From: a virus | Lineage: Duplodnaviria; Heunggongvirae; Uroviricota; Caudoviricetes | DNA length: 40,859 nucleotides | Virus record (IMG/VR): IMGVR_UViG_2597489870_000008 | Reading direction: 5' to 3' (one strand) | Notes under the pieces: generated by a model | Database searches by the model: none | Seen by the model: only the letters and a program-made list of their open reading frames with translations | What the model was told of the DNA's origin: nothing | Part shown: in pieces, positions 542-40,859 of the stretch | Position numbering within the stretch: position 1 is the stretch's first letter | Layout: every line of letters begins with the position of its first letter | Translations under genes and position numbers: made by a program

Positions 542-1579
542 TTAACGCTTATCCGCCACCAGTTTGAGCGCGTGTTCCAGCACGTTAATGTCAGCACCCG
601 CTTTATGGGCATTTTCACTTAAATAACGCCGCCACTGCCGCGCGCCAGGAATACCCTGGAACAAGCCCAGCATATGCCGGGTAATATGGCCGAGATACGT
701 CCCCTGGCTGAGTTCACGCTCAATGTACGGATACATGGCGCGCACTACCGCCACCGGATCGGCATCGGTATCCGAGGAACCAAAGATCTCCCGGTCTACC
801 GCCGCCAGAATACCCGGATTCTGATACGCCTCGCGCCCGACCATCACGCCATCCATATGTTGCAAATGCGCTTTAGCTTCTTCCAGCGACTTGATGCCAC
901 CGTTAATCGACATCGTCAGATGCGGAAAGTCACGCTTCAGTTGATACACACGCGGATAATCGAGCGGCGGGATTTCACGGTTTTCTTTCGGGCTTAACCC
1001 CGAAAGCCAGGCTTTACGTGCGTGGATGATGAACATCTCACACTCGCCTTTGCCGGAAACGGTGTTGATGAAATTGCAGAGAAATTCATAGCTGTCCTGG
1101 TCATCGATGCCAATACGCGTTTTCACCGTCACCGGAATCGACACCACATCGCGCATCGCTTTCACGCAGTCGGCAACCAGCTGCGCATTACCCATCAGAC
1201 ACGCACCAAACATGCCGTTCTGCACCCGGTCAGACGGGCAGCCGACATTCAGGTTGATCTCATCATATCCGCGCGCTTCTGCCAGCTTCGCACACTGCGC
1301 CAGCGCCGCCGGATCGCTACCGCCGAGTTGCAACGCTACCGGATGTTCTTCTTCACTGTACGCCAGGTAATCACCTTTACCGTGAATAATCGCCCCTGTG
1401 GTCACCATTTCGGTATACAGCAGCGTATTGCGGGAAAGCAGACGCAAGAAATAGCGGCAATGTCTGTCCGTCCAGTCGAGCATAGGAGCAATGCTAAACC
1501 GAGAATTCCAGTAAACACCAGTTTTTTCAGGCATCACGCTGGTTTGATTAATTTTTTGTGTTTCATGATTATCGTGCAT
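542..1579 (-). CDS. dusA: tRNA-dihydrouridine synthase A
   Basis: 345-aa ORF with a full-length Dus/TIM-barrel flavoprotein sequence (…[21 protein letters not shown]…VKTRIGID…) matching E. coli DusA; lies next to pspG as in E. coli. Confidence 0.9.
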
Positions 1580-1667: not shown

Positions 1668-2765
1668 ATGGCGTACTATAACATAGAGAAACGACTAAAA
1701 TCCGATGGCACACCACGCTATCGCTGTAATGTGATTATCAAAGAAAAAGGTGTTATCACTTACAGGGAAAGCAAAACATTCCCTAAACATGCTCATGCCA
1801 AAACATGGGGCACACAGAAAGTGATGGAATTAGATCTATATGGCATTCCATCATCAAATGCAGTTGACGGACTTACAGTCCGTGACTTACTACACAAATA
1901 TTTAAATGACCCAAATGCCGGAGGTAAAGCAGGCCGTACTAAAAGATATGTGCTGGAACTGCTTATGGATAGTGACATCTCCGCGATCAAACTATCTGAA
2001 CTGACAGAAAATGACGTAATTGAACATTGCAGGCTAAGAAACAACGCTGGTGCAGGTCCAGCTACAGTTAGCCACGATGTTAGTTATCTTGGCAGTGTTC
2101 TGGATGCTGCCAAACCTGTATATGGAATTAATTACACATCAAACCCAGCAAAAGCCGCTCGTCCATATCTACTTAAACTTGGTTTAATTGGTAAATCAAA
2201 TCGTCGTAATCGTAGACCGGCATCTGATGAACTGGACATGCTCATTGAAGGTCTTCAACAACGATCTACACATAAATGCTCAAAAATTCCGTTCGTTGAT
2301 ATCCTCAAATTTTCTGTGTGGTCATGTATGCGAATCGGTGAAGTATGCCGATTACGATGGGAGGATCTCGATCAGGAACAAAAATCCATACTCGTAAGAG
2401 ACAGGAAAGATCCACGTAAAAAGGAAGGCAACCATATGAAAGTAGCCTTGCTTGGGGAAGCCTGGGATATCGTCCAACGACAACCCAAAAAATCAGAATT
2501 CATTTTTCCATATAACAGCACTTCTGTTACTGCGGGATTCCAGAGGGTAAGAAGCAAATTAGGTATTAAAGATCTGCGATACCATGATTTGCGTAGAGAA
2601 GGGGCAAGTCGCTTATTTGAGGCTGGTTTTAGTATTGAGGAAGTCGCCCAGGTTACAGGGCATCGTTCATTAAACGTGCTATGGCAGGTATATACCGAAC
2701 TGTATCCGAAATCTTTACATAATCGTTTTGAAGAGCTCCAAAGGAGCAGAAATAAGACCTCTTGA
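1668..2765 (+). CDS. int: Tyrosine-type phage integrase (dusA-associated integrase class)
   Basis: 365-aa ORF with GAGG 7 nt upstream of the ATG; C-terminal HDLRREGASRL…GHRS…YTELY region typical of tyrosine recombinases; sits immediately next to the 5' end of dusA. Confidence 0.85.
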   Translation: MAYYNIEKRLKSDGTPRYRCNVIIKEKGVITYRESKTFPKHAHAKTWGTQKVMELDLYGIPSSNAVDGLTVRDLLHKYLNDPNAGGKAGRTKRYVLELLMDSDISAIKLSELTENDVIEHCRLRNNAGAGPATVSHDVSYLGSVLDAAKPVYGINYTSNPAKAARPYLLKLGLIGKSNRRNRRPASDELDMLIEGLQQRSTHKCSKIPFVDILKFSVWSCMRIGEVCRLRWEDLDQEQKSILVRDRKDPRKKEGNHMKVALLGEAWDIVQRQPKKSEFIFPYNSTSVTAGFQRVRSKLGIKDLRYHDLRREGASRLFEAGFSIEEVAQVTGHRSLNVLWQVYTELYPKSLHNRFEELQRSRNKTS

Positions 2766-38484: not shown

Positions 38485-39519
38485 TCAGAAAAATATTTCA
38501 GCTTTTTTACCATCAAATACCCACTCGCTGGATAAGATTTTCATATTGCTAGCATAATTAAAAGTAAATTCTATCATTATCTTTTGTTTATCATTCGGAT
38601 AGTCGAAAACCTCTAATAAAAAGAAATCTCCTATAATCGAATAACAATGTATGCAACAGTTAGATAAATAACAATCACTGTCTCTGTCCTTAACAGTACC
38701 AATTCCAGCCGCCCAGAGTTTTTTGTTATCCACGTGAGTGGCTATTAGTTCTTTGACATCAGAATCACGAAAAGATAAAAACTTGACGAATACGGACTTA
38801 CTGTAAACAGAAATACCTCTGATAATTCCAGTTCGTTTCTTACATCTCCAGCATTTTGTAACTCGCGATTCTATTTTTGCAGTCAGCACATCCCCAACCT
38901 TTGGGAACCATAATAGCTTTCTGGCAAAAACACCCGCGATAAACTCCCTGACACTAATCCCAAACTGTGGTAGATACAAGTCCCCATTTTCATTCTGACG
39001 CACACCAAAAACAGGTAAATCGTAGCTATGGTATATATTCCCACCATGCTCTTTACTTCCTTTACGTAACTTTCGCAACCACAGTGCACGGACTCCTGAT
39101 GCGATATATCGTTTTTGACGTTCTTTAAATTCATCGTCTTTTTGCGGTGATAACTGTACTTCGAAAACCAGTTTCGCGTTATTTCTGGTACAAAACACAT
39201 CGGCAATCCATTGTTCTCCTGCTGGGGTCGCCCCTTGTTTTTCGGTAGTAACTGACCAGCCAGCATCACTGGCTAATTTTGCGATTAAGAATTTGAGATA
39301 TAAATGTTCTGCGCTTTCTTTCGCATACAGGCAATCGCTTTTGGATTTATGTGCAAAGTAATAGTTATTAAGTTTGCTTGTTTTAGGTATACCAGGCTGA
39401 CCACAGCACGACATAAACAAAGACTGGCTTTTATATGTCTGTTTAAGATATTCCCATTCCTGAGAGTTAAATTCAAAAGAATGAATTTCTTTTCCGTTAA
39501 GTGACGCTTTTAGTGGCAT
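38485..39519 (-). CDS. CoiA-like (competence protein CoiA family) putative nuclease
   Basis: 344-aa AT-rich ORF; N-terminal CCGQPGI…NYYFAHKSKSDCLYAKESAEHLYLKF fits the CoiA signature (Cys pair, FAH, ESxEH) as I recall it. Confidence 0.55.
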   Translation of the reverse strand: MPLKASLNGKEIHSFEFNSQEWEYLKQTYKSQSLFMSCCGQPGIPKTSKLNNYYFAHKSKSDCLYAKESAEHLYLKFLIAKLASDAGWSVTTEKQGATPAGEQWIADVFCTRNNAKLVFEVQLSPQKDDEFKERQKRYIASGVRALWLRKLRKGSKEHGGNIYHSYDLPVFGVRQNENGDLYLPQFGISVREFIAGVFARKLLWFPKVGDVLTAKIESRVTKCWRCKKRTGIIRGISVYSKSVFVKFLSFRDSDVKELIATHVDNKKLWAAGIGTVKDRDSDCYLSNCCIHCYSIIGDFFLLEVFDYPNDKQKIMIEFTFNYASNMKILSSEWVFDGKKAEIFF

Positions 39520-39657: not shown

Positions 39658-39831
39658 TCATACTGCTTTGCGACGACGAAGCTTACCCTGCTGCTCTTTA
39701 CCAGAGACAGTAACGTGAGTGAACGCATTAGGAGCAGCCTTCATCAGAACTTCAACAGCAGCACCCATACCTGCGAATGCTTTCATTGTGTCGAACTTAA
39801 GCTGTGGCTTGGTTGCTTTTTGATCTTCCAT
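39658..39831 (-). CDS. Small hypothetical protein (57 aa) downstream of the candidate toxin gene
   Basis: Hand-found ORF below the track cutoff: MEDQKATKPQLKFDTMKAFAGMGAAVEVLMKAAPNAFTHVTVSGKEQQGKLRRRKAV, with GGAG 8 nt upstream. Confidence 0.4.
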   Translation of the reverse strand: MEDQKATKPQLKFDTMKAFAGMGAAVEVLMKAAPNAFTHVTVSGKEQQGKLRRRKAV

Positions 39832-39870: not shown

Positions 39871-40290
39871 TTACTCATCATCAATAGATGATACGCAATA
39901 TTTATTTTTAAATTTAAGGTTCTTTGGCGTAACTTCATCAGATATATCAAAACCGTCCAGAATTCTATTGAATGTAGCTTCTGGCATATCATCATGAACA
40001 GAAATCTCACCCGATCGCTGCTTTCTAACCATGTTATCCACTCGCCAAATTATAGCTTCAGCGTAAACAACATAACTTGGATGCTTGATAAAGCGATGAT
40101 CACCGGAATTCAAAACGCAAGACGGATCGTGGGGGACACCATCCTTGATACTAGAAATATTAACAACTAAAACACAATAACAATCGTTAACGGGGTAATA
40201 AACAGGATCATTACAAATCACATGAAGATGATTGCATGGTCCAGTTGGGGCAAGCACAGTTCCTTTCCTGTATGGCTGATAATCCGTCAT
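39871..40290 (-). CDS. Uncharacterised 139-aa protein translationally coupled to a Panacea-domain gene; candidate PanT-type toxin or defence effector
   Basis: ATG overlaps the stop of the upstream DUF4065 gene (ATGA); AT-rich; Cys/His-rich (…GPCNHLHVICNDP…DPSCVLNSGDHRFIKHPSYV…); no known family recognised. Confidence 0.55.
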   Translation of the reverse strand: MTDYQPYRKGTVLAPTGPCNHLHVICNDPVYYPVNDCYCVLVVNISSIKDGVPHDPSCVLNSGDHRFIKHPSYVVYAEAIIWRVDNMVRKQRSGEISVHDDMPEATFNRILDGFDISDEVTPKNLKFKNKYCVSSIDDE

Positions 40291-40859
40291 GATAATTGCA
40301 AAGAAAATTCCTTAAGTTTCTGAGATTCTTCCATTTTGCCAATTATACGATTAGCCTCATCCTCGCTTTTACCCTCACTGATCAACATTTCTTTCAGGTC
40401 TATAGGCTTACGAGAATTGCCAGGATCGTGCCACTCTGGACAAACGCTTTCTAAATGCGTCATATTTGCGAGATCAAATCGGTTCATATGCCCATACCGA
40501 GAATAGATTTCATCTAAAATCCGGATATCTGCACGACTCAATTCATCAAAGACCTCGTCTGCATCCATTTCCCTCGGATCTGAACGCAACGATACATTAT
40601 GCCCGTTCGTCTCTATCAAGTTGTACCAGTAGTCACCAATGCCTTCAGCCTTACCGCGAATCAAGTTCAGCGTATTCGACATGACTGGTCCAAATTTCAT
40701 AGAGTAAAGGCTATCTTCGCCGATCATCCTGCCATGCTTCAAAATCGACTGGCGGTTAGACAGATAGAGCAGCTTCATCAATTTCAGATATGCCATGCGC
40801 CCACCTCTCTTAAGAAGTAGGTATGCAGCCATTTGAGCTACTTTTTCTTCGCAAAACAT
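40287..40859 (-). CDS. Panacea-domain (DUF4065, SocA/GepA-like) protein; candidate antitoxin (the N-terminus may lie at or beyond the window edge)
   Basis: …MAAYLLLKRGGRMAYLKLMKLLYLSNRQSILKHGRMIGEDSLYSMKFGPVMSNTLNLI… matches the DUF4065 pattern as I recall it; the ORF reaches the last base of the window. Confidence 0.6.
   Translation of the reverse strand: MFCEEKVAQMAAYLLLKRGGRMAYLKLMKLLYLSNRQSILKHGRMIGEDSLYSMKFGPVMSNTLNLIRGKAEGIGDYWYNLIETNGHNVSLRSDPREMDADEVFDELSRADIRILDEIYSRYGHMNRFDLANMTHLESVCPEWHDPGNSRKPIDLKEMLISEGKSEDEANRIIGKMEESQKLKEFSLQLS

Follow-up and report, generated by a model that had tools for sequence, protein, structure and literature searches.

At its right end, the window (the whole stretch of viral DNA analysed here, 40,859 nt, IMG/VR record IMGVR_UViG_2597489870_000008) carries two overlapping genes, panA and panT. 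We estimate a probability of about 75% that the pair is a bicistronic type II toxin-antitoxin (TA) module of the PanAT kind, carried as accessory cargo at the attachment (att) end of a prophage in dusA, with a MazF-fold toxin that would inhibit translation. Over the 1,320 bp queried, the window is 100% identical to the genome of enterotoxigenic Escherichia coli (ETEC) H10407 (NC_017633.1). The evidence from the present analysis consists of the domain of PanA, the homology of both proteins to a validated pair, the MazF-like fold predicted for PanT, and a co-evolving two-gene architecture.

The panA-panT gene pair

The pair and its junction are located in the window as follows.

40859..40287, minus strand: panA, 190 amino acids (aa), ATG start; stand-alone Panacea (DUF4065) antitoxin domain
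40290..39871, minus strand: panT, 139 aa, ATG start; toxin cluster T6
40287..40290, minus strand: ATGA junction, where the panA stop TGA overlaps the panT ATG by 4 nt

In an hmmscan search, residues 27-137 of PanA matched the Pfam family PF13274 (SocA_Panacea) with an E-value of 2.2e-19 and 70.9 bits, against a gathering cut-off of 25.7 bits. A preliminary description of this DNA had placed a Panacea (DUF4065) gene at 40287..40859 and had staked the proposal on such a match; the opposite outcome, no DUF4065 match, did not occur. The 4-nt ATGA overlap with a 139-aa open reading frame (ORF) at 39871..40290, which was part of the same description, can be read directly from the sequence: the plus strand at 40287-40290 is tcat, i.e., ATGA on the coding strand, and both genes lie on the minus strand. 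Membership of the PanAT group, after Kurata et al. 2022, is defined by a Panacea domain above the Pfam gathering threshold and by same-strand genes no more than 100 nt apart, and the H10407 pair has its 4-nt overlap in place of a spacer. The ATGA overlap implies that translation of panT is probably coupled to that of panA.

PanA has no additional N-terminal domain, and a conserved C-terminal region (approximately residues 138-190) lies outside the Pfam match. The corresponding RefSeq entry, WP_000458584.1, is named 'Panacea domain-containing protein'. The panA ATG sits at the very last base of the window; however, 33 PanA homologues share a start at the motif MF/YSExKxAQ, and the gene is therefore complete despite the window edge. 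PanA is 49% identical to PanA of Pseudomonas phage Sirocco, and the N-terminus of the latter (MIFSEQKVAQ) is identical to the ten N-terminal residues that Kurata et al. 2022 restored to PanA of Pseudomonas moraviensis (PMC8832971). A single-sequence structure model of PanA was too poor to use (predicted local distance difference test score, pLDDT, 42).

Relationship of PanT to toxin cluster T6

No match to PanT was found by hmmscan in Pfam, NCBIfam or PADLOC, and the only family match was PHROG 19071, of unknown function. A relationship was provided by the survey of Kurata et al. 2022, in which the partners of Panacea antitoxins were sorted into 88 toxin clusters (PMC8832971). Cluster T6 was labelled 'EndoA/PemK/MazF-family RNases' by HHpred, and its P. 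moraviensis member was marked 'TA', meaning validated (PMC8832971). In a BLASTP comparison, PanT is 43% identical over 120 aa (E 6e-34) to P. moraviensis PanT SDU72800.1 (132 aa). This protein was identified as the validated toxin (WP_083201923.1 in the cluster) by the strain name and by its primer-encoded termini: it starts with MPGNIL and ends with IRQNNF, and these first six and last six residues are exactly those in the published cloning primers for PanT(Pse. mor.). Toxicity, neutralisation, complex formation and translation-specific inhibition are taken from the literature on this orthologue. P. moraviensis PanT stops the growth of E. coli and the cognate PanA rescues it; the two proteins co-purify in a pull-down, neutralisation is independent of ClpXP and Lon, incorporation of 35S-methionine is specifically blocked, and a MazF-like fold is predicted (PMC8832971).

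Two further members link the family to T6. Pantoea septica LMG 5345 and Yersiniaceae bacterium 2016Iso4, both listed under T6, were independently recovered in our genome scan as carriers of a PanT homologue, each with a Panacea gene directly upstream. The T6 rows of Dataset S1 give antitoxin then toxin at a distance of -4 for the former and a distance of -1 for the latter (PMC8832971), and the junctions that we found (-4 and -1, respectively) match these values. PanT is also 48% identical to a homologue (132 aa) in Pseudomonas phage Sirocco, whose pair is a close relative of the P. moraviensis one. In the record of that phage the homologue (OR683410.1, 1486-1884, plus strand) is unannotated, and a 135-nt antisense coding sequence (1741-1875, minus strand) is annotated over it.

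By homology, then, the 139-aa partner is assigned as an orthologue of the validated T6 toxin and not as a new kind of toxin. The preliminary description had regarded it as a protein without an assignable family and as a candidate new toxin. The former holds insofar as no Pfam, NCBIfam or PADLOC model exists for the family, which is why the partner seemed unassignable, and fails insofar as the protein belongs to T6; the latter has to be abandoned, since an orthologue has already been validated as a translation inhibitor neutralised by PanA (PMC8832971). We also considered whether the H10407 pair corresponds to one of the non-toxic pairs named 'E. coli MOD1' and 'Salmonella phage Emek'. This was rejected, because both belong to T1 and not to T6; in addition, Emek is absent from the tblastn matches.

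Start codon and conserved residues of PanT

In the RefSeq annotation of H10407, made by the Prokaryotic Genome Annotation Pipeline (PGAP), PanT starts at an internal GTG (V12), giving a protein of 128 aa (WP_014640052.1; NC_017633.1, 4685133-4685519) without overlap with panA. With this start, the ATGA overlap is masked and 11 conserved residues are lost from the N-terminus, among them part of the first beta-strand. The seeming Shine-Dalgarno sequence before the GTG (AGGAAAGGA) consists of the codons of R8-K9-G10. Since P6, K9, G10 and T11, all upstream of the internal GTG, are conserved family-wide, and since the validated Pseudomonas toxin begins upstream of the position equivalent to that GTG, the ATG at 40290 is, as judged from these comparisons, the better start of panT.

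An alignment with 28 diverse relatives revealed that L13, G17, H21, L22, H65, S72, Y76 and S117 of PanT are invariant, and that H23, C26, D28, P29, V43, D55, C58, L60, V74 and G113 are nearly so. H10407 PanT keeps all of the family-invariant residues, and both ORFs of the pair are intact. C26 is invariant in Enterobacterales but is replaced by Met in the validated Pseudomonas toxin; therefore, not all conserved residues of PanT are essential. An essential zinc site or Cys chemistry, which might be read from the HxHxxC motif and C58, was rejected for the same reason, and also because C58 is Val in one relative.

The family is large yet has no curated model. The initial homology search with PanT returned 62 clusters, every one of them 'hypothetical', chiefly from Enterobacterales with some from Vibrio and Shewanella. 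An exhaustive HMMER search with the PanT family profile found 2,703 representative clusters (clusters at 50% identity) at E<=1e-3, 929 of them at E<=1e-10.

Predicted fold of PanT

The AlphaFold2 model of PanT, built from a 54-sequence alignment, has a pLDDT of 90 and a predicted template modelling (TM) score of 0.83. It contains beta-barrel strands at residues 10-16, 19-25, 37-47 and 72-83 and helices at 84-93, 104-116 and 122-131; a beta-barrel like that of MazF, Kid and CcdB occupies approximately residues 10-99 and is followed by two C-terminal helices (104-131). The predicted structure thus has the SH3-like barrel of MazF/Kid/CcdB. When the model was compared with the PDB by Foldseek, the top 50 matches were all MazF chains (best E 3e-3, probability 1.00, TM 0.44-0.63), and against viral models the top matches were PemK-like proteins. 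The profile search and the structure prediction, which had been put forward as checks in the preliminary description, accordingly gave a DUF4065 match for the 190-aa protein and a MazF-like fold for the 139-aa protein.

From the model, we infer an endoribonuclease activity for PanT, structurally of the MazF/Kid type. H21 and H65 would be the best candidate catalytic residues, acting as a general acid/base pair. In the model, H65 lies in the loop preceding strand 5 and H21 at the start of strand 2; by strand position, the start of strand 2 would be the place of the catalytic Arg of MazF. The invariant H21, H65, S72, Y76 and S117, compared with the Arg/Thr pair R29 and T52 of E. coli MazF, suggest that the chemistry may be different.

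Distribution and co-inheritance of the pair

The pair is present in 565 of 5,426 complete E. coli genomes (~10%), at 95-100% identity. In other species, a PanA homologue was found immediately upstream and on the same strand in 30 of the 31 genome loci with a PanT homologue, and the exception lies at a contig end. These 31 loci cover Gamma-, Beta- and Alphaproteobacteria, and the order PanA-PanT is also kept in five phages. The recurrence in E. coli and in the loci of other species indicates that the pairing is more than chance. All 34 upstream proteins tested, three of them from phages, matched PF13274. Among the 31 related pairs, the junction is ATGA in 17 and TAATG (1-nt overlap) in three, and the others have gaps of 1-27 nt. 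Meanwhile, the identity matrices of PanA and PanT over 22 pairs are strongly correlated (Mantel r 0.82, with 0 of 5000 permutations as high), and the mean pairwise identity is ~41% for PanA and for PanT alike, i.e., the two proteins have diverged equally. Within the family, panA and panT are inherited as a unit.

The module consists of two genes. A 57-aa ORF and a CoiA-like gene near the pair were considered as third components and rejected, since neither is conserved with the pair elsewhere.

Two observations on individual records are added here. At one of the related loci, in the methanotrophic gill symbiont of Bathymodiolus platifrons (locus L034, 2989-3273), the PanT homologue is broken after 34 codons and the upstream PanA is intact (190 aa); this may be a decayed toxin with its antitoxin kept, or a sequencing error. 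In addition, a protein collection clustered at 90% identity places the E. coli 190-aa PanA and 139-aa PanT in one 541-member cluster together with a 232-aa 'DUF4065 domain-containing protein', which suggests miscalled or extended ORFs spanning both genes in some assemblies.

Prophage context

According to the annotated record, the prophage is ~39.5 kb long, with head genes of the HK97 type, lambdoid regulatory genes and a contractile tail. Its integration site is the 5' end of dusA, in agreement with the dusA-specific integrase family of Farrugia et al. 2015 (PMC4482086). The other features mentioned in the text are the following.

542-1579, minus strand: intact dusA, flanking the integrase end of the prophage
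1668-2765, plus strand: tyrosine integrase, adjoining the intact dusA
38485-39519, minus strand: CoiA-like protein, 344 aa; Pfam CoiA_nuc E 7.4e-10, weak CoiA_N and DUF6035
39658-39831, minus strand: 57-aa ORF just downstream of panT; PHROG 2741, E 1e-34, function unknown
254-358 bp past the window end: dusA 5' fragment, 105 nt, marking the att site opposite the integrase

Counted inwards from the att site opposite the integrase, panA-panT is the first transcription unit of the prophage. The G+C (GC) content is 0.39-0.445 across the pair and 0.36-0.42 across the CoiA-like gene, compared with 0.46-0.50 in the adjacent prophage genes. With the dusA fragment beginning 254 bp past the window, this agrees with the AT-rich island at the prophage end noted in the preliminary description; its proposal of a PanAT-type TA pair carried as accessory prophage cargo is likewise supported by the domain, the gene order, the coupling and the conservation. 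Phages Lys8385Vzw and SKA5 have circular genomes in which an identical pair stands beside the integrase across attP. More generally, unrelated temperate phages carry the pair at accessory sites: beside the integrase in Lys8385Vzw and YeP1, and also in a P2-like Pseudomonas phage and in a tailless Vibrio prophage.

The CoiA-like gene occupies the lowest-GC part of the island (0.36) and is missing from the otherwise near-identical Lys8385Vzw and SKA5; it is therefore a lineage-specific insertion, and may serve on its own as a defence or accessory gene of the nuclease type. The 57-aa ORF is also present in phage mEp460, which lacks the PanAT pair, and in other species it is not linked to the pair. 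A search of PADLOC-DB v2.0.0 gave no match at E<=1 for PanA, PanT, the 57-aa ORF or the CoiA-like protein. Nothing credible came from scans of the region for Rfam families and repeats, and a terminator scan upstream of panA gave no more sites than shuffled sequence.

Comparison with known systems

The closest known system is PanAT of P. moraviensis (T6, PMC8832971), which has the same two families in the order PanA-PanT, tightly coupled genes, a stand-alone Panacea PanA with a near-identical N-terminus, and the MazF-like fold prediction, with the 43% identity between the toxins given above. The P. moraviensis copy differs in being tabulated as 'NotPhage' with a 1-nt overlap, whereas the E. coli pair lies in a dusA prophage and has an ATGA junction. 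In addition, E. coli PanT has 7 more residues and an acidic tail, and its C26 corresponds to the Met of the Pseudomonas toxin.

In contrast to the toxins of MazEF and Kis-Kid (PemIK), PanT has no detectable sequence similarity to that group, and the antitoxin is a Panacea domain instead of a DNA-binding protein of the AbrB or ribbon-helix-helix type with a disordered tail. Compared with MazF, the S1-S2 loop of the PanT model is shrunk to a tight hairpin, two C-terminal helices are additional, and the conserved residues are His/His/Ser/Tyr in place of the Arg/Thr pair.

SocAB of Caulobacter crescentus, a type VI TA system, shares with the present pair an antitoxin with a Panacea/DUF4065 domain. 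However, PanA scored 14.4 bits against the SocA equivalog NCBIfam NF047745, for which the cut-off is 190, and is not SocA; its partner has a predicted MazF-like fold and is not SocB. Moreover, SocA is a proteolytic adaptor, whereas PanA of this kind neutralises by direct binding without ClpXP. The fused CapRel-type toxSAS systems (Zhang et al. 2022, PMC9712102) are similarly prophage-borne and related to toxins neutralised by PanA, and CapRel serves as the model for phage-protein sensing by an antitoxin element (PMC9712102). CapRel joins a toxSAS toxin and a neutralising element of the pseudo-ZBD/PAD1 type in one fused polypeptide, whereas the H10407 pair comprises two proteins with a toxin of predicted MazF fold, and sensing by it is hypothetical.

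Proposed mechanism and biological role

In the mechanism that we propose, panA would be translated first, with panT translation coupled to it through the ATGA overlap, and PanA would bind PanT directly and keep it inactive. Were PanA lost or inactivated, PanT would be set free and would halt protein synthesis, most likely by cleavage of mRNA, tRNA or rRNA, leading to growth arrest. The RNase chemistry, the catalytic residues, the trigger and the biological role (phage defence or prophage retention) are what we infer beyond the sequence comparisons and the orthologue literature.

Several results weigh against the reading of the pair as an active module with a MazF-fold toxin. The Foldseek values are modest in both E-value and TM score. 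At the sequence level, the Pfam model PF02452 (PemK_toxin) gave no match at E<=1 for PanT or for 28 diverse relatives, the PanT family profile had no match among PDB sequences, and hhalign of this profile with E. coli MazF and with a four-sequence MazF/Kid alignment (sequences verified against the PDB) returned probabilities of 0.1-0.2. The exchange of C26 for Met in the validated toxin belongs here too, as does the finding that 8 of the 25 predicted PanTs assayed in E. coli showed no toxicity, one of them from an E. coli pair of the different cluster T1 (PMC8832971). Finally, a promoter scan upstream of panA found sites no commoner than in shuffled sequence; a lone -35/-10-like site ~130 bp upstream was rejected as promoter evidence, as it represents no excess over shuffled sequence. 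Because a sequence-level link to MazF or PemK was not found, the RNase assignment rests on the predicted fold together with the translation phenotype of the orthologue. Poisoning of DNA gyrase by PanT in the manner of CcdB, as opposed to a MazF/Kid-like activity, is highly improbable in view of the MazF chains among the structural matches and the translation phenotype, although the barrel itself is of a kind shared with CcdB.

The non-toxic PanTs in the published set also bear on the E. coli pair, which might do no harm in its own host and be domesticated, decayed, or active only in another background; the disrupted PanT of the Bathymodiolus symbiont locus provides a related case. We regard this as quite unlikely, since both H10407 ORFs are intact with all invariant PanT residues present, the pair is maintained at 95-100% identity in 565 E. 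coli genomes, and the T6 representative that was tested is toxic in E. coli (PMC8832971).

For an active module, a possible main role, which we put forward only tentatively, is abortive-infection defence of the lysogen, in which a component of a superinfecting phage would inactivate or remodel the PanA sensor and so free PanT; this would be compatible with the TA mechanism. The position of the pair in an att-proximal accessory region of low GC, adjoining another accessory nuclease-like gene, and its recurrence at accessory sites of unrelated temperate phages are in its favour, together with the proposal of Ernits et al. 2023 that Panacea is primarily a sensor domain and their linking of TA modules to defence systems (PMC10440598). 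However, location by itself is weak evidence, neither PanA nor PanT matches any PADLOC model, and our literature search turned up no paper in which a T6 PanAT protects against phage. An addiction or retention function, in which prophage loss would end the supply of labile PanA and stable PanT would then arrest the cell, is conceivable but doubtful: type II TA modules on mobile elements classically behave in this way, panA and panT are strictly inherited together, and the pair, adjoining the attachment site, would go on excision; but the published neutralisation by PanA needs neither ClpXP nor Lon (PMC8832971), so that the differential stability of the antitoxin is only putative. A more specific form of the defence role would have T6 PanAT act as a prophage abortive-infection system whose Panacea domain senses a protein of the superinfecting phage and frees a MazF-fold RNase with a His21/His65 pair instead of Arg/Thr; taken as a whole, this is speculative and rather unlikely.

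Implications

As the present case cautions, standing beside a Panacea gene does not by itself make a protein without a family a new toxin. Lacking a Pfam, NCBIfam or PADLOC model, members of the PanT family are 'hypothetical' everywhere; the H10407 gene was given a wrong start by PGAP, and at least one phage genome lacks an annotation for its copy. A family model would mend many annotations. The remaining interest of the pair lies in a large family without a curated model, in conserved residues unlike those of canonical MazF, and in tractable E. coli copies: the ~10% of complete E. coli genomes that carry the pair on dusA-type prophages offer a tractable host for the questions of phage sensing by Panacea and of the RNA target of the toxin. 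If the abortive-infection reading with the His21/His65 pair were true, T6 PanAT would stand apart in mechanism as a separate branch of the MazF superfamily, and current catalogues would lack this defence family.
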